In this document: positions 46,484 through 64,000 of the stretch, piece by piece
Numbering within the stretch: the stretch's first letter is position 1
Layout of the letters: the number at the start of each line of letters is the position of its first letter
Source of the DNA: an uncultured Anaerolineales bacterium
GTDB lineage: Bacteria; Chloroflexota; Anaerolineae; Anaerolineales; RBG-16-64-43
Reading direction: 5' to 3'
DNA length: 64,000 bases
Assembly: GCA_964521085.1 (NCBI GenBank)
Contig: CAZFPL010000004.1
Location: forward strand, 67,198-131,197
Made by a program: the position numbers and the translations under genes
The notes under the pieces: model-generated
Seen by the model: the letters and a program-made list of their open reading frames with translations, nothing else
Told to the model about the DNA's origin: nothing
Database searches by the model: none

Positions 46484-48115
46484 CTACTCAAGCTTCCTCA
46501 CGCTGCCGCCTTCCACTCCCCAAACCTCATTCGCCATCCGCTCGATGAAATACCGATCGTGCACCACGGCAAGCATGGTTCCATGAAACGCGGCCAGCGC
46601 CTGTTCGAAGGAGTCGCGGGAGGGGATATCGAGGTGGTTGATCGGTTCGTCGAGCAGGAGGAAGTTGCAGCCGCGGGCGACAAGCAGCGCAAGCAGGAGC
46701 CGCGCGCGTTCTCCGTAGGAAAGCGAGCCGAGGGGGGTGAACACGTCGTCGCCGGAAAAGAGGAAGTAGTGCAGGAAGCGACGCGCGTCGGTTTCGTCGG
46801 CGGCGATTTCGGCCTGGACGATTTCGAGGGCGTTGCGCGCCGGGTCAAGCGTTTCCTGTTCCTGCACCATGAAACCGGGACGCACATTCGCGCCGAGCTG
46901 CACGCGGCCGGCAAGCGGGGGAAGCGCGCCGGCAATCGTGCGCAGGAGGGTCGTCTTGCCGCTGCCGTTGGCGCCGGTGAGCACCGCGCGCGCGCCGCGC
47001 CGCAGGCGCATGTCAACCCCCTCGAGGATAACGGTACTGTTATAACCCACAGAGAGACTCTCGAGTGTGAGAACATCGTTCCCGCCGGCGGCGGCCGGAT
47101 CGAATTCCAGCTTCATCCCCCATTCCCAGCCGGGCTTTTCCACGCGGTCCTCGGTCAGGAGCTTTTCGATCCGCCGCTCGATCTGCTTGGCGCGCTTCAT
47201 CGTCCCCGCGCCGCGGTTGGCGAAGAACCCTTTGGCGAACCCGTCCTTGGTGTCCGCCTTGCCGCCCTTGCGGAAGCGCGAGATTCCGCGCAGGTGGCTG
47301 GCCGCGCTGCGCAAGTCGGCGATCTCCTGCTGCTGGTCGGAATACGCCTGCTCCTGGCGCGCGCGCTCCTCGTCTTTCTGATCGCGGTAAGCCGAGTAGT
47401 TTCCGTCGTATTCTTTCACTACGCGCGTGCGTGAATCGAGTTCGAGGATGCGCGTGACGGTCCGGTCGAGGAAAGTGCGGTCGTGCGAGACGACGAGCGC
47501 GCCGCCGCGGAAGGCGCCAAGCCATTGCTCGAGCCACTCGAGCATCGGCAGGTCGAGGTGATTGGTCGGTTCGTCGAGGAGCAGCAACTGCGGGTGTGCC
47601 AGGAGGACTCCGGCCAGCGCCAGGCGGGTCTTCTGCCCGCCGCTGAGCGTGGAGATACCCGCATCCAGCGGGATCCGGTCCAGGCCGAGGATGGCGAGAG
47701 TCGCAGCGACCGAGCCGGCGCCGTTCGGAACGGCGGCGAGGCGGTCGAGCGCCTCGTCATATGCCGCGTGAAGCGCTTTATCCTCTGGCGATTCCGCAAG
47801 CGCCGCGGCCAGGCGTTCGACCTCCACGCTCAGCCGGGGGAGATCGCCCTCGGCGTAGGCCAGGAACTCACCGAACGTCTCGCCCTCGGGGAGAACCAAT
47901 CCCTGGGGGAGGTAACCGATCCGCAGAGAGTTCGGCTTTTGGACCGACCCGGAATCGGGCGGATCGAATCCGGCCAGGATGCGGAGCAGGGTGGTCTTTC
48001 CGCAGCCATTGGGGCCGACCAGGCCCGCGCGCTCGCCCGGGTTGAGGTTGAAGGAGACGGCGCCCAAGATGACGTTATCACCGAAGGATTTGCGGATTTG
48101 GCTGGCTGAAAGCAT
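46484..48115 (-). CDS. ABC-F family ATPase (two NBDs, no TM domain)
   Basis: Two Walker A motifs (GPNGCGKTT, GANGSGKTT), two signatures (LSGGQKTR, LSYGERAR), and a charged linker (RDQKDEERARQEQAYSDQQQ). ATG at 48113-48115. Confidence 0.85.
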   Translation of the reverse strand: MLSASQIRKSFGDNVILGAVSFNLNPGERAGLVGPNGCGKTTLLRILAGFDPPDSGSVQKPNSLRIGYLPQGLVLPEGETFGEFLAYAEGDLPRLSVEVERLAAALAESPEDKALHAAYDEALDRLAAVPNGAGSVAATLAILGLDRIPLDAGISTLSGGQKTRLALAGVLLAHPQLLLLDEPTNHLDLPMLEWLEQWLGAFRGGALVVSHDRTFLDRTVTRILELDSRTRVVKEYDGNYSAYRDQKDEERARQEQAYSDQQQEIADLRSAASHLRGISRFRKGGKADTKDGFAKGFFANRGAGTMKRAKQIERRIEKLLTEDRVEKPGWEWGMKLEFDPAAAGGNDVLTLESLSVGYNSTVILEGVDMRLRRGARAVLTGANGSGKTTLLRTIAGALPPLAGRVQLGANVRPGFMVQEQETLDPARNALEIVQAEIAADETDARRFLHYFLFSGDDVFTPLGSLSYGERARLLLALLVARGCNFLLLDEPINHLDIPSRDSFEQALAAFHGTMLAVVHDRYFIERMANEVWGVEGGSVRKLE

Positions 48116-48292
48116 ATACGACCTGTGGGTGGAAAACAAAAACCGTGGGCAATGCTCCACGGTCGGACCCCCGCTCGCGAATTCTTCGCGCCGGGAGATC
48201 GCCGGTGCTCATCGCTCGGGGGGCAGGCGAGCTGCCCAAAAGAACGGATTTTACAGGTCGACAGTGCGCATTCGAGGGAATCCTTTCAACAT
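48116..48292 (-). promoter_or_regulatory. attenuator-like leader of the ABC-F gene (mini-ORF plus terminator hairpin)
   Basis: Mini-ORF ATGCGCACTGTCGACCTGTAA (48251-48271; a longer version starts at 48292). Hairpin ACCGTGG-N8-CCACGGT plus U-tract (48133-48163). CGACCTGT is complementary to ACAGGTCG just before the ATG. Duplicated at 52313-52470. Confidence 0.5.
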
Positions 48293-49414: not shown

Positions 49415-49848
49415 AGAGCGCCCGAACCTACGCCGCATCCGGCGCTGCAACCGTTGAGGCCGCACTCGGCGGAATCACCGGGCACGGCTCTGGCCCCCGC
49501 TTCGCATTTACAGTCTCATTCAAAAACAAATCTGATGGCAGCATGCTCCCCGGCTTCGTAATCGCTTCCGTTCCCAGAGTTCACGGGAACAGGGGCACTC
49601 TGTGAGGGCGGGCTTTAATAAAAGCACGTTGGAATTAATTAAGCCCGCATGCTAGTGCAAGCCTGGCCCGGCGAAAATGACTCAAAATGTTTTTTTTTAG
49701 ATTTCCGGGTAAAATGTTTGCTGGTAGAAGTCAGGCCAAGCGGCTGAGATACCGTCCTTTGGCCGTCATTACTGTTTATATATCAACCCTCGAATATTCA
49801 CGACGACAAATGATATAAGGATCGTTCTACAAAGAGAAGGAGTTAAGT

Positions 49849-50894: not shown

Positions 50895-52187
50895 TTATGA
50901 CTTTATGTGTCCACGCGTAGTCGGCATAGTTTGCCGCGGCGCGGCCGTATCCTCAACATGCACCACCGACGGGATGCAGAGCGTGGTGATTCCCATTGCG
51001 GCGATCACGATCCCGCCGGCGATCCACCAGATCTCAACCCCGAAAGTGTCCGCGACCGGACCGGCCAGCAGGAGCCCAAGCGGCGCCAGGCCCTGGGTGA
51101 TGCTCGAAATGAGCGAGAGCACCCGCCCCTGCATCTCCGGCGGGATGAGCGCCTGGGCGATCGCGCCGCTGAGGCCGAGGACGATCGATTCCAAAAAGCC
51201 GACCGCGAAGATGGCCGGGAGGGCGGCCGCAAAATACGCGGACGGGATCAACGCGATGGCGATGAGGAGCAAACCGTCGAGTGCCAGCGCGAGCATCTGG
51301 GTGACGATCCGGCGCCGGAAACCTCCCCACAGGCTGAGGATTATTCCCCCGATGACCGTTCCTATTCCAGCCGCCGCTTCCCAGGCGCCGAGCTCGGGCG
51401 CGCCGCCGCGGAAATGATCGAGGACCATCAGCGGGGCGAGGGAGCCCGCGGCGCGGCCGAGCATATAGATGAGGATGCCGATCCCGCACAGAATCAGGAG
51501 CGGTTTCCAGCCCAGGATAAACAGCATTCCCTCGCGCATGTCCGCCCATACGCCCGGTTTTCCGCCGGGCCCTTCCGGCGCCGGCTTTCGCACCGGCTGC
51601 GGAATGGCGATGACCAGGAGCGGCGCGATGGCCGGGACGGCAGTCGCGACGTCGATCGCCAGGATCGTCTGCATCGGGAGCGCCATCATCGCCAGCGCCC
51701 CGAGCGGTGGGATGAAGATCGCGGCCGTGCCCCCCAGGAGCTGGTTGAGCCCGCCGACGCGCGACAGGTGCTCACGGGGGACCATCAGCGTCGTCGAGGC
51801 CTGCATGGCGGGCCAGTGAAAAGCCGAGCCGATGGACCGAACAACCAGCAGCGCGTAGATGCTTGCGACGCCGGCCAAACCCCGCCAGAACAGGAAAGCG
51901 AGAAACAGCGTGGCCGCCGCGATCAGAGAGTCGGCGGCGATCATCACCGCGCGCCGGTTCCAGCGGTCGACCAGGGCCCCGGCGAAGGGCCCGAGCAGGA
52001 TCTGCGGGAGGAGCGCGGCGAGGGTGGCGAGGCTCAGCACCGTCGCCGAGCCGGTGGTCGAGGTGAGCCACCAAACGAGCGCGAACTGGACGAGCGCGCT
52101 ACCCAGAAGCGAGAACGCCTGGCCGGTCCAGACGATCAGGAAAGAGCGGGGGATTTTACCGTCCGGCAAATTGGCTGCCATGGACAT
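50895..52187 (-). CDS. MFS transporter, DHA3 (macrolide-efflux-like) family
   Basis: FLIVWTGQAFSLLGSALVQFALVWWL and GALVDRWNRR motifs; 12 TM helices. Confidence 0.8.
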   Translation of the reverse strand: MSMAANLPDGKIPRSFLIVWTGQAFSLLGSALVQFALVWWLTSTTGSATVLSLATLAALLPQILLGPFAGALVDRWNRRAVMIAADSLIAAATLFLAFLFWRGLAGVASIYALLVVRSIGSAFHWPAMQASTTLMVPREHLSRVGGLNQLLGGTAAIFIPPLGALAMMALPMQTILAIDVATAVPAIAPLLVIAIPQPVRKPAPEGPGGKPGVWADMREGMLFILGWKPLLILCGIGILIYMLGRAAGSLAPLMVLDHFRGGAPELGAWEAAAGIGTVIGGIILSLWGGFRRRIVTQMLALALDGLLLIAIALIPSAYFAAALPAIFAVGFLESIVLGLSGAIAQALIPPEMQGRVLSLISSITQGLAPLGLLLAGPVADTFGVEIWWIAGGIVIAAMGITTLCIPSVVHVEDTAAPRQTMPTTRGHIKS

Positions 52188-52312
52188 GGATTATACGGAA
52201 TTTCATCAACGCTGCTGGATCCCGGCGCACAAACCGGATTGAGGTTGAAGTAGACGCCGCCCAAGATGACGTTATCAACGAAGGATTTGCGGATTTGGCT
52301 GGCTGTTATCAT
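52136..52312 (-). other. remnant of an ABC-F 5-prime coding end acting as an upstream ORF that overlaps the MFS start
   Basis: MITASQIRKSFVDNVILGGVYFNLNP matches MLSASQIRKSFGDNVILGAVSFNLNP of the 46484-48115 gene. It then diverges and ends at 52136, overlapping the MFS ATG at 52187 out of frame. Confidence 0.6.
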
Positions 52313-52470
52313 ATGAGACCTGTGTGGGAAAACGAAAACCGTGGGCAATGCTCCACGGTCGGAGGCCATACTTGGCGAAACCGCCTCATATGACTCAGAT
52401 GAGCTGCCCGGAGAATACGGACTTTACAGGTCGATAGTGCGCATTCGAGGAGATCCTTTCGGTGGAACGC
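52313..52470 (-). promoter_or_regulatory. second copy of the attenuator-like leader, upstream of the MFS gene
   Basis: Mini-ORF ATGCGCACTATCGACCTGTAA (52424-52444). An identical terminator hairpin at 52338-52359 plus U-tract. GACCTGT/ACAGGTC complementarity is retained. Confidence 0.5.
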
Positions 52471-52880
52471 ATGGCGTTTTACCACGCTTATTGATGGAAA
52501 GGCAGTTCAAGGATGGATGAAATACGGGCCAATATGTAGGAACCCATTTGGATGCATATTGACCGGTTTAGAGATTATTATGAGGCGATGAAGCTGAGCT
52601 TTGGTTATTGATGTGAACCCAAAAAGATATATACTGCTAAGTGGATTTCCATAAAGCTGGAAGACGAATTCGGTTATTAGTATGTCGGGCTTCATGGAGG
52701 GGAATTAAAAGAGCGCCCTAACAAACCATATTCCTCGCATCTCTACGCTGCGTCGGCGAACGGTCTCGCCGTGCCCATACGGTTGTTCGGAGTTGAAGTT
52801 TAGCAACTCTCGAAGGGGGATGGAGGGATTCGCGGAACAAACACCCTCATGTTTGTTCCTGTTCAAGAGGAGGATTGACA

Positions 52881-53726
52881 ATGGCGAAAGGCATTTCGGT
52901 CCATATCGGGTTGAACAAGGTAGATCCACGTCACTATGCCGGCTGGGATGGCACACTCGGGGCTTGTGAGGCGGACGCCACGAGCATGGAAGGGATCGCG
53001 AAGGGCACAGGCTATAAGACCCGCGTCCTGCTGACGCGGGCGGCTACGCGGCGGAAGGTTCAAAGCGTCATCCGCGATGCCGCCGCCCATCTTATCGCGG
53101 GGGATATCTTCCTCCTGAGTTATGCGGGCCATGGCGGGCAAGTGCCCGACGTAAGTGGCGATGAGCCGGACGACAGCGACGAGACCTGGTGCCTGTACGA
53201 CGGCGAACTGATCGACGATGAGTTATTCGAGTTGTGGAAGGGTTTTGCGCCCGGCGTCCGTGTCCTGGTGTTCTCCGACAGCTGCCACAGCGGAACCGTG
53301 ACGCGCGCCGCCCGAGGCGAGCTCGATCTCGGCGGCGTTTCGACGGAGCTACGTGCATTCGGGATCGAAAAACCGGTCTTCCGTTTCATGCCCCCCGACG
53401 TCGCGCGAAAGACGTATATCGCCAACAGGAAGTTCTACGATGACCTTGGCAAGAGCGTCCCGACGGAAAAAGGAGCGCCGGCCGCCACGGTGCGGCTGAT
53501 CTCCGGCTGCCAGGATGACCAGTCCTCCTCGGATGGGCCCTTCAACGGTCTGTTCACCGGCACGCTGCTCAAGGTGTGGAACAACGGCGCATTCAAAGGC
53601 GATTACGCGCGTTTCCATGCCGAGATCGTGAAGAATATGCCGCGCTGCCAGAAACCGAATCACTTCGTCATCGGACCTAAAGCCCAGGCTTTCGACCGGC
53701 AGAGACCTTTCTCCATCGAGGGGTAA
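52881..53726 (+). CDS. caspase-like peptidase C14 (stand-alone catalytic domain)
   Basis: GGAGG RBS. Catalytic His context LLSYAGHGGQ and Cys context VFSDSCHSGT. No additional domain (281 aa). Confidence 0.85.
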   Translation: MAKGISVHIGLNKVDPRHYAGWDGTLGACEADATSMEGIAKGTGYKTRVLLTRAATRRKVQSVIRDAAAHLIAGDIFLLSYAGHGGQVPDVSGDEPDDSDETWCLYDGELIDDELFELWKGFAPGVRVLVFSDSCHSGTVTRAARGELDLGGVSTELRAFGIEKPVFRFMPPDVARKTYIANRKFYDDLGKSVPTEKGAPAATVRLISGCQDDQSSSDGPFNGLFTGTLLKVWNNGAFKGDYARFHAEIVKNMPRCQKPNHFVIGPKAQAFDRQRPFSIEG

Positions 53727-53730
53727 AAAA

Positions 53731-56700
53731 ATGCCCTCCGCAAAGAAACTTCGGTTACCGCGATCCGCGCAGGCCAAGAGAGGCAAGGCACCTGCGAGGA
53801 GCAAACGCACGCCTTCCGCAAGGAAACCCCGGCCACCGCGCTTGATGCAAGCGAAGAAAGGCAAGGCGCCTGATCACGAGGCGCTCGGCGAACAGGCGCT
53901 GGCCATGCGGTGTCAGAAGCGGTACAGCGAGGCGCTCGACCTATACCGGCAGGCCGCCAAAGCCGCCGCCTCCGCAGGCGATCGCGCCGCCGAGGCGAAA
54001 TGGATCTCGAAGCAGGGGCAGATCCACCGCCTATGCAAAGACCCGGCTGCGGCCCAGGAAGCATTCGAAAACGCGCGGGCCATCTTCGCCTCGCTGGGGG
54101 CGACAGGTCTTGCAGGACTTGGCGACCAGGAGGGGAACCTTGGTCTTCTCGCCGCGGATCGAGGCAACGACTTCGAGGCGGAGTTCGCCTACCGCCGGGC
54201 CATCGACCTATGTGAAGCCGCCGGAGACATGAGCGGGGTGAGTCTCTGGGCCAGTAACCTGGGCAAAGCCCTTTCGCGGCGGCGGCGCTATCAACGCGCA
54301 TGGGACGCGTTCCGGAAATCCGTCGCGGCCGCCCAAAGCGCGCGCGACCCGTCTATGCTGGCGTCTGCAGCCATGCAGTGGAGCGGATCCTACAGCGCGG
54401 CGCATCGTTGGGGGGATGCCGCCGAGGCATTGGCGACCGCGGCTCGCGCCGCGCCCGACCCCAGGGAGAGGGCGCAATTAATCGGCGAGAGCCTGCGCGA
54501 CTTGATGCGGGCAGGCGAATGGAAGCGCGCCCAGGCCATGTGCCCGGAGGTTCTCGAGATGTTGCGTGCGGGCGGCGCTCCCCCCGCGGCTTTCGAACAA
54601 ATCGAGCAGATTAAACGGGACGCCGCCCAGGCGCTGGCCTCGCCGGCCAAGAGAACCGGCGGTCCGGCAGTCCGGCCGCTCGATGAGGTGGCGGTCGGTG
54701 CGATGGCCCACTACGAAAAAATGAACCAGCCGGGCGCGATGGGCTGGGTCGGGCACCTGATCTGCGACATCCACTGGGCGCTGGGCGCGCCCGGGCTTCC
54801 CGGGTGGGAGCCATTCCTCTCCGAGCCCAACCTGTACTACCGCATCCTCGGAGATGTCATGTTCGCCATGTGCAATGGGGGGCGGGCGGAGGAGAGCCTC
54901 GAGTTGTCACAGCGCTACAAGGGCGCTGCGTTCGCGCTGCCGTTCCTCGCGGCCGTCGAGCGCGCCAAGGATAATCCGCCCGAGGTGCGCCGGTACCTGG
55001 ATGCGCTCGCCGCGCTGCGCGAAGCCGTTTCCGCGCTGGCAGCCGGGGACCCGCAAGCGTTCCACCCGCTTGCGCACCGCGTGCGTGCCGCGGGCGAGGC
55101 TCTGCTCGAGGCGGGTGAGTATCTCCATGATCGCGACCGGGGGATGCATGCGCGGCTGGGGGGTGTCGTGCCGCTTCGCCACCTGATCGATGCGCTGCCG
55201 GCGGGCGACCCGGTGGGCATCCTCGACTTCGTGGTGACGTCGAAGGGATTTCTCGCTCATCTGGTCGCACGGGAGGGGACAGAGGTCCGGGTGGTTCCGT
55301 TCGTCTCCGCTGACTTAAGCGCCGAGCTGGTCGATGAGCTTGCCATGATGTGGGGGCCGGAAATGGTGCACGCCTCCGACTTGGAACGCCAGCGGCAGGT
55401 TCTGGATCACATCGGCGAAGTGCTGCATGACAGGTTCTTCTGCAAGCTGGCCCACTGGCTCGCCGAGCACCGGATCGGGCAGGTCATCCTGGTGCCGGAC
55501 CTTCTCACGCGCCACCTCCCGCTGCATCTCGCACGGGTGTGCGCCAAGGACATCACGATCCCGGGCGTTCCGGTTGCCGACGCCGAGTTCTTCTGCGAAG
55601 TTCTGCCGGTGGAATACGCCTCCTGCCTGCAGGCCGTGGCGCTTAGCCAGCAGCAGCGGAGGCCGCAGAATCTCGACCGCATCGCCTCCTTCTCCGACTC
55701 GAAGTCCGATCTGCCCGGAGCGCGGCACACCGGGCAATGGCTTGCGACGCGCATCGGCGGCGGCATCGAGTACCTCGACCGCAGAGGATCCGACGTCACG
55801 CGGGAAGCCGTGGAAGATGAGATGCGGCGGTCGAAGATCGTGATGATCGCCACGCACGGATGTTTTGACACCGCTCATCCCGAGGCTTCGTTCCTGCAGC
55901 TTCACGATCACGACTGGACCGCCAAGGATATCGCCTCGCTGCCGCCGCTCGAACACAGCCCGGCGGTCGTGCTGGCCGCCTGCGAGATTGCCGCTGCCAA
56001 GCCCGGCGAAGATCCCGAGGCCGACGGAATACCCGGCGCGATGCTTTCGGCCGGCGCTGCGTTCGTGCTCGGGAGCCGGTGGCCCGTGGAGGACGTATCC
56101 ATGGGCATTCTGATCGAGCGCTTCCTCCATCACATGACCAGGGTGGGCTTGCGGCCCGCGGCGGTATTGTTCCGCGCGATAAAGGACCTTCGGAAGGTTG
56201 GGCGCGCCGAAGCCGTCGAGTGCTGCCGCGCCCTGCTCGATCAGATGGCGAAGGATGGAACGCGGGAACAGATGCCCGATGCGTACGCCAAGCTCGACTG
56301 GTATGCACTGCAGCTCGAGAGCGGCGGCAAGGAGCACCCATTCGCGGCGCCGGCCTGCTGGGGCGGTGTCGTGGTGACCGGCAGCGGATGGAACGGGCTC
56401 GCCGGCGGCGTCGCCGGCGGCGTGCACGCCGTCGAGGGGCTGATGCAGCTCGAGCAGGCGCGGGCGCTGCTCGAAAGTGGGCAGGCGGCGGAGGCGAGAA
56501 TGCAGCTCGCCGGCATGCTCGGCGGCTGCGACGGGATAGTACGCGCGCAGGCCCTCGAACTGCTGGCGGCTGCCATTGTCGAGAGCGCGCATCCCGCGTG
56601 CCGCAAGACCGCCCACGCGGAGGCAATCCGTTGGCTCGACGAGGCGGGGTTCGTGGCGCGCGCCGAGCAGCGGCCGCAGCTCCTGAGGAATATCAAAGCG

Positions 56701-56736
56701 ACGCGGGCAAAACTCGAACTGCTGCAGGAGGGCTGA
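53731..56736 (+). CDS. TPR-repeat / CHAT-domain protease with Lys/Arg-rich N-terminal tail
   Basis: Starts 4 nt after the previous stop. TPR-like helical repeats span about aa 55-330. CHAT-type dyad IVMIATHGCF ... AVVLAACEIA, followed by GAAFVLGSRWPVED. Confidence 0.8.
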   Translation: MPSAKKLRLPRSAQAKRGKAPARSKRTPSARKPRPPRLMQAKKGKAPDHEALGEQALAMRCQKRYSEALDLYRQAAKAAASAGDRAAEAKWISKQGQIHRLCKDPAAAQEAFENARAIFASLGATGLAGLGDQEGNLGLLAADRGNDFEAEFAYRRAIDLCEAAGDMSGVSLWASNLGKALSRRRRYQRAWDAFRKSVAAAQSARDPSMLASAAMQWSGSYSAAHRWGDAAEALATAARAAPDPRERAQLIGESLRDLMRAGEWKRAQAMCPEVLEMLRAGGAPPAAFEQIEQIKRDAAQALASPAKRTGGPAVRPLDEVAVGAMAHYEKMNQPGAMGWVGHLICDIHWALGAPGLPGWEPFLSEPNLYYRILGDVMFAMCNGGRAEESLELSQRYKGAAFALPFLAAVERAKDNPPEVRRYLDALAALREAVSALAAGDPQAFHPLAHRVRAAGEALLEAGEYLHDRDRGMHARLGGVVPLRHLIDALPAGDPVGILDFVVTSKGFLAHLVAREGTEVRVVPFVSADLSAELVDELAMMWGPEMVHASDLERQRQVLDHIGEVLHDRFFCKLAHWLAEHRIGQVILVPDLLTRHLPLHLARVCAKDITIPGVPVADAEFFCEVLPVEYASCLQAVALSQQQRRPQNLDRIASFSDSKSDLPGARHTGQWLATRIGGGIEYLDRRGSDVTREAVEDEMRRSKIVMIATHGCFDTAHPEASFLQLHDHDWTAKDIASLPPLEHSPAVVLAACEIAAAKPGEDPEADGIPGAMLSAGAAFVLGSRWPVEDVSMGILIERFLHHMTRVGLRPAAVLFRAIKDLRKVGRAEAVECCRALLDQMAKDGTREQMPDAYAKLDWYALQLESGGKEHPFAAPACWGGVVVTGSGWNGLAGGVAGGVHAVEGLMQLEQARALLESGQAAEARMQLAGMLGGCDGIVRAQALELLAAAIVESAHPACRKTAHAEAIRWLDEAGFVARAEQRPQLLRNIKATRAKLELLQEG

Positions 56737-56738
56737 TT

Positions 56739-57548
56739 ATGTGCAAGCGCGATGCGGCGTCACGCGATCCGCTGTTGAGGCTCTTTCTGGAGAAATACCA
56801 TCTCAATCTGTTGTCGGTGCCGCGCGAGAACTCCGATGTCGGCGACCTCTACATCCACGACGGTAAACGCACCGGATCGCCGGGGAAGCTGGCTTCGTTC
56901 CTGGCCCGGCCGTTCCAGATGCCTACCATTACGCGCGGCGAGGAACTGGCTTCGATCGCCGGCAACCTTTCCAACGGCGTGAAAATCGACGCCGGGTTCG
57001 GCCTGCTCGAGGTTTTCCTCATCGCTCTGGGCGCGGCGTTTCCCATCTCGAAGGCCAAGGCCCACTGGGAGTCGAAGGGGGTGCATACCCTGCGCTTCAA
57101 AGTGGAAGGCGCGAGGCGCGACAGTGTGGATATCGGCCGGCTCGGGCTGGCGCTCATCGACAACAACCTCTCTGCGGCGCATCCGCTGTACGACGAAAAG
57201 AGCCGCTACTACCTCGTGACCGGCGTCGCGCGAAGCAAATCGCTGACCGTCCTCTTCGAGGACGAGCGGGGCATGGGAATCGACCTGGGCGCCGACGTCA
57301 TCGGGATCGGAAATGTGAATGCCGGAGTAGGCGTCACCAAAGGCGCCGGCGGCGAGGTTACGTTCGACGGCCCGAAGCTTTTGGCCTTCGGCGTGGAGTT
57401 GTACGAACTGTTCGTGCGCGGGGATCGCATCCGGCTGCGGCTGCCCGCTGTCGCCGTCAACGTGCGCGGCGCCGGGGCGCCGGCCGGCCGGCCCCAGCCC
57501 GCCTTCATCGGCGGAGCCGACGCAGATGTGTTTATGGATCTCGAGTAG
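56739..57548 (+). CDS. bacterial gasdermin (bGSDM) homolog
   Basis: ATG lies 2 nt after the CHAT stop, with GGAGG upstream. MCKRD (Cys2), LNLLSVPRENSDVGDLY, GFGLLEVFLIALGAAF, YYLVTGVARSKSLTV, FDGPKLLAFGVELYELF, and a C-terminal tail of about 35 aa. This matches the bGSDM sequence pattern. The upstream part of the 489-aa track ORF is rejected. Confidence 0.75.
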   Translation: MCKRDAASRDPLLRLFLEKYHLNLLSVPRENSDVGDLYIHDGKRTGSPGKLASFLARPFQMPTITRGEELASIAGNLSNGVKIDAGFGLLEVFLIALGAAFPISKAKAHWESKGVHTLRFKVEGARRDSVDIGRLGLALIDNNLSAAHPLYDEKSRYYLVTGVARSKSLTVLFEDERGMGIDLGADVIGIGNVNAGVGVTKGAGGEVTFDGPKLLAFGVELYELFVRGDRIRLRLPAVAVNVRGAGAPAGRPQPAFIGGADADVFMDLE

Positions 57549-57560
57549 GAGGGATAAACC

Positions 57561-57941
57561 ATGTCCGATGCGTACGCCATCGATCGATTCCAGGAGGCGG
57601 TGGAGCGGTTCTGCAAACTCGAGGAGAAGCTGCGTGAGAAAATCAGCAGCGTGGACCCCAAGAAGATCGACGCCGTGCTCATCGATCTTTCGGCGGCCAT
57701 CCCGGGCCTGAGCGGCGAAGACCTGGGCCGGGCGCTGGTGTTCAAGGCCTACGCTTTCCACTGGCGCTTCCTGACGGAACTCGGCAAGAAGAGCATGTTC
57801 GAAGTGCTCGACGTCCCCGTAGATCCCAGGCTTGTGGAATCGCTCGCAGAGGCCCGGAAGGGCCGCGAACTACTGCGGACCCCCCACGACCTTAAGTGGG
57901 CCGAGGAGACGGTGCATCAGCTGGAGGAGTACATGCGCTGA
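57561..57941 (+). CDS. small all-helical protein of unknown function, fourth gene of the gasdermin operon
   Basis: GGAGGGA RBS; 12-nt gap after the gasdermin stop. 126 aa with helix-forming composition and no motif recognised. Confidence 0.6.
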   Translation: MSDAYAIDRFQEAVERFCKLEEKLREKISSVDPKKIDAVLIDLSAAIPGLSGEDLGRALVFKAYAFHWRFLTELGKKSMFEVLDVPVDPRLVESLAEARKGRELLRTPHDLKWAEETVHQLEEYMR

Positions 57942-59530: not shown

Positions 59531-59950
59531 AACGGGCTAACAAGTGCGTGCAGCCGATCCCCGCCAAGAACTCCCTCGCTTCGTGAACACGCCACTTCCA
59601 TAAATCGGAAGTGACGTATTGCCATCCAATAACAAAACCGATGGCAACATGCTTCCCCCGCTTCGCGAGGGCAAGCGCGAGGGTAGGCTTCGGCTTTGAG
59701 TCTTCGATGGTTCCTCCCACGATGACATTTCAAGTAAAATGAACCTAGTCATATATAGTCGGCCAAACCGCCCCCGCTCCCCCCGCATAAAGCGCGGGGC
59801 GGACGCATTCAAAACTGCTCAAAGAGCAAAGGCGAGCAGTTTTGCTTCCCCCGCTTCGTAAACATCACCACTCAAAGAGCAGAACCGATTGGTGATACTT
59901 CGCAGGGGCAGGCGCGGGGACAAGCTGAACCGCCAGCCGTTGGGCGGCTG
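59531..59950. repeat. inter-cassette repeat X (shared core of about 105 nt plus inserted hairpin units)
   Basis: Core GCGAGGGCAAGCGCGAGGGTAGGCTTCGGCTTTGAGTCTTCGATGGT...CAAGTAAAATGAACCTAGT...GGCCAAACCGC. Ends with GTTGGGC at 59939-59945. Confidence 0.7.
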
Positions 59951-60624: not shown

Positions 60625-60850
60625 CCTGCTTAACGCCCAACATGTGCGTGCAGAGGATTTGGCCCCCCCGCTACGCATTCATGTTGCCATCCAATAACAG
60701 AACCGATGGCAACATGCTTCGCGAGGGTGAACGCGAGGGCAAGCTTCGGCTTGGAGTCTTCGTTGGTATGTGCTTCGGAGGCGGAATAAGTATAATGAAC
60801 CTAGTAGTGCACAGCCGGCCAAGCGGCTGATGAGCAGGCCTTTGGGCAAT
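60625..60850. repeat. inter-cassette repeat Y
   Basis: GCTTAAC and GCCCAAC at 60628-60641. Hairpin GTTGCCATC...GATGGCAAC. Core with TATAAT at 60791-60796. GGCCAAGCGGCTGA...TTTGGGC at 60841-60847. Confidence 0.7.
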
Positions 60851-61799: not shown

Positions 61800-61990
61800 A
61801 ATTATTAATAAATCAATGTTTACCAAACCAGCGCATGCAGCCTGCGCCCGCTAGGATCGCGCGGGCGTAGGCTTTGGCCTTCGGCTTGAAGTATTCGTTG
61901 GTATGTTCTTCGGGTAAGGACAAGTATAATGTTACTAATCCTGCAGGTCTGGTCAAACCGCTGAAGCGCAGGCTGTTGAAATCTTTTGCA
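61800..61990. repeat. inter-cassette repeat Z
   Basis: Core GCGCGGGCGTAGGCTTTGGCCTTCGGCTTGAAGTATTCGTTGGTATG...CAAGTATAATG (TATAAT at 61925-61930)...GGTCAAACCGCTGA...GTTGAAA. Confidence 0.65.
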
Positions 61991-63699: not shown

Positions 63700-64000
63700 A
63701 ATCTCCCCCTTCGCAAGCCATTACCGCCCAAACTACGGGCGGCAATGGCTTCGGGGGACATGCCCGCTTCGCGTTCATGGTGCCATCAAAAAGCAAATGG
63801 CACCATGCTCCCCCCTTCGCGAATTCTTCGCATCGGAATTTCACCGATGCTCATCGCTCGGGGGACGAGCGCGATGGCAGGTTCACCGATGCTCATCAAT
63901 CCCCCGCTTCGTCGTCGCGCAGGTTACCAAAGTACACAGGAACCTGCGCGCTCCCCTCCTACGCAAATTCAGTTGCCCTTCAAAACCCGAAGGGCAACTT
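63700..64000. repeat. array of five different perfect hairpins joined by a conserved GCTCCCC(C)CTTCGC-type linker; continues past the window end
   Basis: Hairpins at 63715-63751, 63777-63806, 63827-63850, 63917-63949 and 63971-63999. Linkers read CCCCCTTCGC, GCCCGCTTCGC, GCTCCCCCCTTCGC, CCCCCGCTTCG, GCTCCCCTCCTACGC. Confidence 0.8.

Follow-up and report, generated by a model that had tools for sequence, protein, structure and literature searches.

We describe a locus of four tightly coupled genes (open reading frames ORF1 to ORF4, positions 52881-57941, plus strand, with intergenic gaps of 4, 2 and 12 nt) in a 64,000-nucleotide stretch of contig CAZFPL010000004.1 from an uncultured Anaerolineales bacterium; this whole stretch is called the window. 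The genes encode, in this order, a C14 caspase-like peptidase, a TPR-CHAT protease, a bacterial gasdermin (bGSDM) and a small TPR-like protein. Our interpretation, to which we assign a probability of about 0.5, is that the locus is a self-contained, horizontally mobile cell-suicide cassette, in which the gasdermin would be cleaved by the CHAT protease, the C14 peptidase would be an accessory, and the outcome would most likely be abortive infection. An earlier interpretation, made from the letters of the DNA (the sequence-only reading), had proposed an operon of two caspase-fold proteases, a bGSDM and a fourth gene. This proposal was borne out, and the fourth gene proved to be conserved.

The products of the four genes

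ORF3 is a bacterial gasdermin as judged from sequence profiles and from a predicted structure that matches the solved bGSDM structures, and it is predicted to form pores. It matched the bGSDM model of PADLOC (E 6.5e-39) and the NCBIfam model NF051890 (prok_gasdermin; 113.2 bits, above the cut-off of 100), its sequence found 7N51 (E 5.4e-11), 8SL0 and 7N50 in the PDB, and its homologues carry the Pfam domain PF26164 (Bact_GSDM). The AlphaFold2 (AF2) model of ORF3 had a predicted local distance difference test score (pLDDT) of 80 and a predicted template modelling score (pTM) of 0.81. When this model was compared with the PDB by Foldseek, the top match was 7N51 (E 8.4e-18, TM 0.76/0.78), followed by 7N50, 7N52 and 8SL0, and animal gasdermins ranked below the bacterial ones. 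The gasdermin call of the sequence-only reading, which was to stand or fall with a match to the gasdermin fold, is thus supported both by sequence and by structure comparison.

The short C-terminal tail and the N-terminal cysteine that had been pointed out earlier in ORF3 are both present. Cys2 (56742-56744) stands where bGSDMs have their N-terminal palmitoylation site and is possibly lipidated; a cysteine occupies this position in 26 of 38 relatives. In the AF2 model the last strand ends near residue 233, the loop of residues 241-250 has the lowest confidence (pLDDT 54), and residues 251-269 are packed on the core (pLDDT 83-85). In the alignment of the gasdermins P-[DE]-G-A-[ILV]-x-V-R comes after the last strand, and its arginine (Arg243 of ORF3) is kept in 31 of the 38 relatives; next comes a linker varying in length and composition, and then the conserved PAFIGGxDxDxF. 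This loop motif is common to the gasdermins of the C14-containing and the C14-less clades. A short C-terminal tail in place of a large C-terminal domain fits the bGSDM paradigm, and by analogy it would be expected to be inhibitory.

ORF2 contains a CHAT domain (Pfam PF12770, E 7.3e-25; 88.4 bits, the cut-off being 24). In 12 of 12 full-length ORF2 homologues the THG and ACE motifs, which hold the dyad residues His709 and Cys751, and a WPVED motif are invariant, whether a C14 gene is next to the homologue or not. The sequence-only reading had described a KR-rich N-terminal tail, TPR-like repeats and a CHAT dyad in this protein. The tail, which is probably disordered, and the dyad were confirmed; the repeats are represented by a TPR_12 match (E 1.2e-05, 25.8 bits) that is below the Pfam cut-off of 30.1 bits, and by marginal matches of residues 52-224 to TPR proteins of the PDB (E 0.007-0.5). 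Pfam gave TPR and CHAT alone, with no SAVED match.

ORF1 matched Peptidase_C14 (Pfam PF00656, E 2.3e-18, 67.2 bits against a cut-off of 21.4) over residues 17-254 of 281, and the Pfam scan gave no domain besides C14, hence no sensor domain. The C14 dyad contexts and the lack of a sensor domain had already been noticed in the sequence-only reading, and the dyad can be assigned to His84 (AGHGG) and Cys135 (DSCHSG). ORF1 can be aligned over its full length with GSU0716 of Geobacter sulfurreducens (PDB 3BIJ, E 8.4e-93), a structural-genomics caspase-like protein without ascribed function, which is like ORF1 in size and dyad; metacaspases were the next-best matches. On these alignments we classify ORF1 as a metacaspase/orthocaspase-type, GSU0716-like peptidase with predicted catalytic activity. 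The dyad and a SGCQDDQ(S/T)S segment are conserved across 11 aligned relatives. In ORF1 this segment (SGCQDDQSS) aligns with the S1-pocket region of the metacaspase Yca1, and we take it to hold the residues that form the pocket. Metacaspase-type C14 enzymes cleave after Arg or Lys. The family is large, with thousands of members (6635 matches).

ORF4 had no family match in Pfam, PADLOC, NCBIfam or PHROGs. Its AF2 model consists of six helices (pLDDT 90.8), and the Foldseek matches of this model were weak and TPR-like (E 0.05-0.4): Fis1 (E about 0.4, TM 0.55/0.68), Pins and a giant-virus TPR protein (E 0.05). The family is tiny: a profile search found 49 representatives among 1.84 billion proteins, the weakest-scoring of which are multi-repeat TPR-type proteins. 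At least 11 distinct loci, C14-less ones included, have this gene directly 3' of bGSDM. Because ORF4 always comes directly after the gasdermin gene and pre-dates the C14 gene, it would therefore belong functionally to the CHAT-gasdermin pair. Its partner could be the TPR region of ORF2, the C-terminal peptide of the gasdermin or the trigger, and it may act as a brake, an adaptor or a guarded decoy.

Three other identities of ORF4 were considered and rejected. A CARD or another death fold was rejected, for Foldseek searches of the PDB and BFVD gave weak TPR/Sel1/Fis1-like matches and no death-fold match. A C14-specific, CI-2-like inhibitor analogous to PCi (see below) was rejected too, since the model is all-helical and TPR-like and the gene occurs with CHAT-gasdermin pairs lacking C14. 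A partial duplication of ORF2 was discarded because the ORF4 profile had no match to ORF2 at E < 10. Among the ORF4 relatives (P0207, P0218, P0221, P0227), none of which has a Pfam match, some carry an N-terminal hydrophobic or transmembrane segment, and such membrane-anchored relatives hint at a membrane-proximal role. One 628-aa member of the family runs into a region with a HELGH (HExxH) motif, suggesting a fusion to a metalloprotease-like domain.

Related loci and the history of the cassette

For comparison, 45 loci with gasdermin relatives were collected from genome bins, metagenomes and exact-protein look-ups, and these loci were then searched with the four window proteins (loci are given below by their L numbers). 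Genome bins of Chloroflexota and Myxococcota are the source of the gasdermin relatives. TPR-CHAT and bGSDM form the conserved core, and every full-length related locus has the CHAT gene immediately 5' of the gasdermin gene. In the close clade (gasdermins at least 57% identical) the C14, TPR-CHAT, bGSDM and ORF4 genes stand in this order in the window, L001, L012, L013 and L045; the four genes do therefore occur together in other genomes, a point on which the sequence-only reading had made its case depend. The C14 gene is confined to this clade, in which it is present in all five loci with enough upstream DNA. In the intermediate clade (44-47% identical) L002/L006 and L004, L005, L020 and L021 have TPR-CHAT, bGSDM and ORF4 and no C14, and the partial contigs L015, L016, L018, L035 and L036 are consistent with CHAT, bGSDM and ORF4 as far as they extend. 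The CHAT and bGSDM genes are found alone, without ORF4, in L007/L019 (46-47% identical) and, amid housekeeping genes, in the distant clade (38-41% identical; Myxococcota bins L008, L009 and L010/L033). Because there are three nested architectures among the loci, the cassette seems to have grown by accretion, starting from CHAT-gasdermin, to which ORF4 and then C14 were added.

The similarity of the window to L001, L013 and L045 runs from the start codon of the C14 gene to the stop codon of ORF4, and the flanks are unrelated. As the similarity is bounded in this way, the four genes travel together, into different surroundings each time. In the window, L001 and L045 they are separated by 2-15 nt. 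Identical C14 genes with the same left flank were present in several public assemblies. In the decayed copy L003 the CHAT genes are fragmented.

The N-terminus of the CHAT protein differs between the clades. A basic tail of variable sequence was found in five of five C14-linked CHATs, although that of L045 has just 3 K/R in 19 residues. In its place, the CHATs of the C14-less relatives L002, L007 and L004 start with a longer extension that is not basic, and the distant CHATs of L008-L010 begin further downstream than the tail of ORF2.

Two further loci have unusual arrangements. L050 (7001-8129) is a decayed copy, in which 4 nt separate a C14 gene (80% identity to ORF1) from an 83-residue remnant of ORF2 (65% identical to residues 37-119); next come unrelated genes, for a phosphoesterase, a Peptidase_C11, a 758-aa CHAT and a DUF7379 protein. 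L015 (1-2935) contains bGSDM and ORF4 followed by a convergent ORF2-like CHAT gene on the opposite strand, with no CHAT match 5' of the gasdermin; it would be a rearranged version of the module.

C14 relatives outside gasdermin loci

Relatives of ORF1 were also found beside other proteases. In L048 a C14 gene and a gene for a CHAT protein (CHAT671) form an operonic pair with a 6-nt gap and no gasdermin. L053 (2119-5976, minus strand) has an operon of a distant 257-aa C14, two small unassigned genes, a 657-aa CHAT and a 214-aa gene; beside this operon are another C14, with 75% identity to ORF1, and the pair DUF7379-CHAT387, so that this gasdermin-free locus is dense in clan-CD proteases. The closest known C14 to ORF1 (82% identical) is not gasdermin-linked either. 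It lies in L046 (5359-9382; GCA_040961665.1), a locus of a related organism. The MFS_3, C14 and beta-lactamase-like proteins of that organism share about 80% identity with their counterparts in the window, but YLATT, the C14 and a 655-aa CHAT are on the other side of MFS_3, without a gasdermin. For these reasons, i.e. its location on the opposite side of MFS_3 and the lack of a gasdermin, the L046 C14 was not accepted as positional orthologue of ORF1. Judged from gene neighbourhoods, the association of this C14 family with a second clan-CD protease is recurrent, not obligatory.

Operon signals and neighbouring sequence

The coordinates and the Shine-Dalgarno (SD) sequences were rechecked; the four co-directional ORFs, their gaps and the GGAGG-like SDs listed in the sequence-only reading all hold (Table 1). 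Besides the SD of ORF1, SD-like sequences are GAGGGG before 53731, GGAGGG before 56739 and AGGAGGG before 57561. For ORF1 an alternative TTG start is possible two codons 5' of the ATG. In the case of ORF3 a longer open frame from 56079 merely overlaps ORF2, and the start at 56739 (MCKRD) agrees with all homologues. Public gene calls on identical contigs conflict about the start of ORF2, giving either 963 aa (Met39, 53845) or 1001 aa (Met1). We prefer Met1, because relatives retain both the basic tail and the close spacing to the C14 stop codon; Met39 was rejected, as its ATG has no SD and this start would break the conserved coupling. The Met39 call would hide the basic tail in some databases. 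The spacer 5' of ORF1 is 690 nt long, AT-richer, and contains one weak promoter-like site; the consensus scan found 3 sites against 1.7 expected in shuffled sequences, and the candidate promoter is weakly supported.

Table 1. Coordinates of the genes, motifs and signals of the cassette (positions in the window)
Feature	Position	Strand	Remarks
Candidate sigma-70-like promoter	52608-52635	+	TTGATG-16-TATACT; consensus scan; weak
Shine-Dalgarno sequence of ORF1	52867-52873	+	GAGGAGG, 7 nt before ATG; read directly from sequence
ORF1	52881-53726	+	281 aa; bare C14 caspase-like peptidase
Catalytic dyad of ORF1	His84 53130-53132; Cys135 53283-53285	+	AGHGG and DSCHSG; assigned by conservation
ORF2	53731-56736	+	1001 aa; TPR-CHAT protease, putative sensor and gasdermin-cleaving protease
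Basic N-terminal tail of ORF2	53731-53871	+	Residues 1-47; 17 K/R, no D/E
CHAT domain of ORF2	55414-56382	+	Residues 562-884; PF12770
CHAT dyad of ORF2	His709 55855-55857; Cys751 55981-55983	+	THG and ACE motifs
ORF3	56739-57548	+	269 aa; bacterial gasdermin, N-terminus MCKRD
Putative protease recognition/cleavage motif of ORF3	57453-57467	+	A-V-N-V-R243; family consensus A-[ILV]-x-V-R; flexible loop
Putative C-terminal auto-inhibitory peptide of ORF3	57468-57545	+	Residues 244-269; linker and PAFIGGxDxDxF; from conservation and pLDDT
ORF4	57561-57941	+	126 aa; six-helix TPR-like protein

The cassette is flanked by genes for an ABC-F ATPase, an alpha/beta hydrolase, two MFS transporters, a GNAT acetyltransferase, a small membrane protein and a beta-lactamase-family protein, and 3' of it the GC content drops from about 0.66 to 0.47-0.37. 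Neither a tandem CRISPR-like array nor an Rfam match (CRISPR-DR included) was found in the whole window, in agreement with the earlier statement that CRISPR components are not present. A search of a plasmid collection with the gasdermin and a PHROGs search with all four proteins gave no match, and no trypsin or STAND/NACHT match was obtained with the operon proteins in Pfam, PADLOC or NCBIfam.

Two kinds of repeats were noticed around the cassette. Some 230 nt are repeated directly (87-97% identity; 48037-48290 and 52234-52460, spaced 4.2 kb); this repeat comprises the first ~40 codons of the ABC-F gene (46484-48160, minus strand) and its upstream leader, the second copy being just 5' of the MFS_3 gene (50895-52187, minus strand). 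Possible explanations are a shared regulatory leader and the scar of a duplication at the edge of the upstream spacer of the cassette. The other is an intergenic element at 49513-49549, 59619-59771, 60684-60827, 61879-61961 and 63775-63876, consisting of a hairpin (TTGCCATC...GATGGCAA), CATGCT, CCCCCGCTTCGCGA and a segment with a -10-like hexamer (TAAAAT/TATAAT). Its core has 4 exact occurrences, against 0.26 expected by chance. Each copy is 3' of a single co-directional gene (MFS, GNAT, the 183-aa membrane protein and the beta-lactamase-like gene), and copies lie in the low-GC stretch (0.37-0.47) right after the gasdermin cassette. By layout alone, this arrangement looks like a gene-cassette array.

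Comparison with known systems

It is useful to compare the cassette with the bGSDM systems described previously. In Runella zeae the CHAT protease (Roc-COR/LRR-CHAT) cleaves its bGSDM directly in vitro, after Leu247, and the CHAT protease removes about 20 C-terminal bGSDM residues (Johnson et al., Science 2022). The Runella pair resembles ours in the short C-terminal peptide (putatively inhibitory in ORF3), the N-terminal cysteine and the repeat-domain CHAT neighbour. The differences are that the putative P1 residue is Arg243 in our gasdermin and that a TPR and an unassigned middle region take the place of Roc-COR/LRR as putative sensor. Table S1 of the same paper lists TPR-CHAT + bGSDM loci in Granulicella, Rhodococcus ruber and a Bathyarchaeota archaeon; compared with these single TPR-CHAT loci and with Runella, the window has in addition the upstream C14 gene and the downstream 126-aa TPR-like gene.

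Loci with one gasdermin beside two caspase-fold proteases have been listed as well (Johnson et al., Table S1). A bGSDM occurs with CHAT and a caspase in Actinoplanes missouriensis, Actinoplanes italicus and Aquimarina pacifica, and with a caspase and a TPR-caspase in Geobacter sp. DSM 2909; none of these has been characterised. By consecutive IMG gene numbers the caspase gene of the Actinoplanes and Aquimarina loci is 3' of the gasdermin gene (CHAT-GSDM-caspase), whereas in the window the C14 gene leads the operon, and no ORF4-like gene is reported for the three genera, a comparison made by gene listing. In a full-text literature search, two-caspase gasdermin systems were not the subject of any later paper. 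In view of these loci, of the published CHAT-to-C14 cascade and of the two-protease operon of Lysobacter, both described next, the novelty implied by the sequence-only reading was overstated.

In the type III-B CRISPR/CBASS (cyclic oligonucleotide-based anti-phage signalling system) locus of Haliangium ochraceum, SAVED-CHAT cleaves and activates PCaspase, a bare C14 peptidase (Steens et al., Science 2024; preprint). According to the preprint, PCaspase degrades many proteins, leading to an abortive phenotype, and a small protein, PCi, modulates the system. PCaspase appears among "protease-associated effector domains" in a 2025 survey. Our locus is similar in that a sensor-fused CHAT is encoded with a bare C14, a relation known here from gene adjacency, and ORF1 can be likened to PCaspase at the level of the C14 family. 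In contrast to that system, our locus has no SAVED match, CRISPR array or cyclic-oligoadenylate signalling, and the effectors would include a gasdermin. Unlike the CI-2-like PCi, ORF4 is TPR-like and accompanies CHAT-bGSDM even without C14.

The four-gene system of Lysobacter enzymogenes encodes a bGSDM, two trypsin-like proteases, an NLR-like STAND ATPase and CARD-like domains (Johnson et al., 2022; Wein et al., 2023). It is the sole bGSDM operon with shown anti-phage activity; its CARD-like domains are essential, whereas protection from the phages tested did not require the first trypsin-like protease. Although both loci are four-gene gasdermin operons with two proteases, the Lysobacter proteases are trypsin-like and not of clan CD and its sensor is a STAND ATPase, none of these parts being present in the window operon, and there was no death-fold or CARD protein among the top Foldseek matches of ORF4.

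Csx29, the protease of the type III-E CRISPR Craspase, is like ORF2 in having an N-terminal TPR and a C-terminal CHAT region. The sequence-only reading had noted this echo. The layout and a weak CHAT-level similarity are indeed there, but the likeness goes no further than the CHAT domain: ORF2 scored 25.9 bits with the Csx29 model NF041237, whose cut-off is 300. Unlike the Craspase, the window has neither Cas7-11/gRAMP nor a CRISPR array, no Csx30/31 was found among the operon and flanking proteins searched, and the substrate here would be a gasdermin. The low model score, together with the lack of an array, led us to reject ORF2 as a Csx29 or CRISPR-linked protein.

What is new here is a defined four-gene cassette with a stepwise history, a conserved mini-TPR gene, a C14-linked basic CHAT tail and a candidate cleavage motif. 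The gene content will not surprise a specialist; the natural two-, three- and four-gene series is convenient for testing whether a caspase cascade leads to a gasdermin.

Proposed mechanism and alternatives

In the mechanism that we propose the gasdermin would be made as an inactive monomer, the last ~26 residues of which are folded back on the core and whose Cys2 is possibly lipidated. ORF2 would be a sensor-protease, its TPR and middle regions holding the His709/Cys751 dyad off until a trigger arrives. The active CHAT would then cleave the exposed loop of the gasdermin, with Arg243 as the probable P1 residue, and with the inhibitory peptide freed, the gasdermin would insert in the membrane and form large pores. 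ORF4 would join CHAT and the gasdermin as a regulatory or adaptor subunit, acting as brake, trigger-binding partner or membrane-proximal factor. ORF1 would be a late accessory; CHAT probably does not depend on it to reach the gasdermin. Because it lacks a sensor domain and is strongly conserved, ORF1 would either need an activator or be constitutively competent. Guided by the PCaspase analogy and by the C14 relatives that share operons with other CHAT proteins in gasdermin-free loci (L048, and a more distant C14 in L053), we favour the view that it is a second latent effector or amplifier, released by CHAT alongside the gasdermin and causing broad proteolysis in parallel to the pores. The TPR-CHAT is the likely gasdermin-cleaving protease; with the Arg243 motif and the CHAT dyad kept both with and without C14, it would be the most economical choice.

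Several points weigh against this scheme. While the identities and folds of the gene products, their catalytic residues, the coupling of the operon, the limits of the cassette and the order of gene gain are established here, the cleavage events, the trigger and the roles of ORF1 and ORF4 are predictions. The assignment of P1 to Arg243 is putative and based on conservation, and the Runella CHAT cuts after Leu. The basic N-terminal tail of the CHAT protein is restricted to C14-linked loci, a correlation that could mean that C14 acts on CHAT rather than the reverse. In the flanks of the cassette there is no recognisable defence gene; PADLOC gave only generic ABC ATPase matches for ten flanking proteins, and a defence-island context was rejected on this result. 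For this reason the anti-phage role rests on analogy with characterised bGSDM operons. Other points come from the relatives of ORF1. CHATs adjoining them elsewhere are diverse and not homologous to ORF2, the C14 of L049 is paired with a Peptidase_C11, that of L063 stands alone amid ribonucleotide reductase and methyltransferase genes, and more distant plasmid copies are in unrelated contexts; thus a CHAT partner is not obligatory for this C14 family. In L046 the adjacency of C14 and CHAT is probably coincidental, the CHAT there having a hydrophobic, signal-peptide-like N-terminus (judged by eye) and being separated from C14 by a 400-nt gap. The idea of a universal C14 + CHAT pair was abandoned on account of the diverse neighbours, the probable coincidence in L046 and the stand-alone members.

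The sequence-only reading had favoured an initiator/executioner cascade, in which TPR-CHAT would sense the trigger and activate C14, and C14 would remove the C-terminal peptide of the gasdermin. The translational coupling of two clan-CD proteases 5' of a single gasdermin would suit such an order of events, CHAT-to-C14 activation is documented for SAVED-CHAT/PCaspase in type III-B, and Arg243 in the conserved loop would fit the Arg/Lys cutting of metacaspase-type enzymes. However, the sister clades (gasdermins 44-47% and 38-41% identical) share the loop motif and the CHAT family but have no C14, the CHAT dyad is invariant even in the C14-containing clade, the Runella CHAT cuts its own bGSDM directly, and one protease of the Lysobacter two-protease operon was dispensable with the phages tested. 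We regard the linear cascade as possible but unsupported, and as improbable. It is somewhat less probable still that C14 trims the K/R-rich tail of ORF2 (or acts on ORF4), and in this way primes CHAT, or feeds back on it or destroys it after activation. The basic tail, with 17 K/R in 47 residues in the window, is present in five of five C14-linked CHATs and absent from the C14-less relatives, and the SGCQDDQSS segment of ORF1 aligns with the S1-pocket region of Yca1, where the pocket residues are presumed. Yet the correlation comes from five loci related by descent, the length and basicity of the tails differ greatly (3 K/R in 19 residues in L045), binding to nucleic acid or membrane would explain a basic tail just as well, and the activator of C14 would be left unaccounted for.

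C14 might also be independent of, or redundant with, the gasdermin pathway, either as a caspase-like toxin, a housekeeping hitch-hiker or a second input, and dispensable for gasdermin activation. This would agree with the size of the family (6635 matches, stand-alone L063 and plasmid genes among them), with the gasdermin-free locus of the closest relative (82% identical, L046) and with the precedent of a dispensable protease in the Lysobacter operon. Against it are the 4-nt coupling to the CHAT gene, which is kept in five of five loci with differing flanks, the L050 C14 beside a TPR-CHAT remnant, pointing to common descent of the pair, and the strict conservation of the catalytic residues; we think it about as unlikely as the linear cascade. 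A different question is whether the cassette acts against phages at all. It may serve stress-induced or developmental death, or kin discrimination, in response to an endogenous trigger. Many members of the Chloroflexota and Myxococcota, the phyla of the bins in which the relatives were found, are multicellular or social. The flanks are free of defence genes and the window of CRISPR arrays and Rfam matches, and a figure legend of Johnson et al. states that most bGSDM operons tested in E. coli gave no protection against the phages used. On the other hand, the flanks are unrelated from locus to locus and decayed copies exist (L003, L050), a pattern typical of defence cargo, and one bGSDM operon was shown to defend against phages. 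A role other than anti-phage defence therefore seems to us rather unlikely, and abortive infection by a CHAT-cleaved gasdermin is the interpretation that we prefer.

Implications for gasdermin systems

Bacterial gasdermin systems are the prokaryotic counterpart of pyroptosis, and to our knowledge just the single-protease version (Runella) and the NLR/CARD-trypsin version (Lysobacter) have been studied mechanistically. The natural series of two-, three- and four-gene loci lets one ask what a second caspase-fold protease adds to a gasdermin pathway, whether the CHAT-to-C14 cascade, so far found in CRISPR/CBASS only, feeds pore formation, and what the role of the previously unnoticed conserved mini-TPR partner is. 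There is a small chance that the cassette is a caspase cascade ending in a gasdermin pore, in which the CHAT initiator would activate C14, C14 would be needed for full maturation of the gasdermin or provide a second proteolytic death arm, and ORF4 would set the threshold. If this were true, it would be a three-tier bacterial counterpart of the inflammasome, caspase and gasdermin sequence, built stepwise from CHAT-gasdermin by the addition of ORF4 and C14. If C14 is dispensable, the cassette would add to the Lysobacter precedent in suggesting that extra proteases in gasdermin operons are conditional. If it is a parallel effector, as we favour, one bacterial sensor-protease would release two different death effectors.

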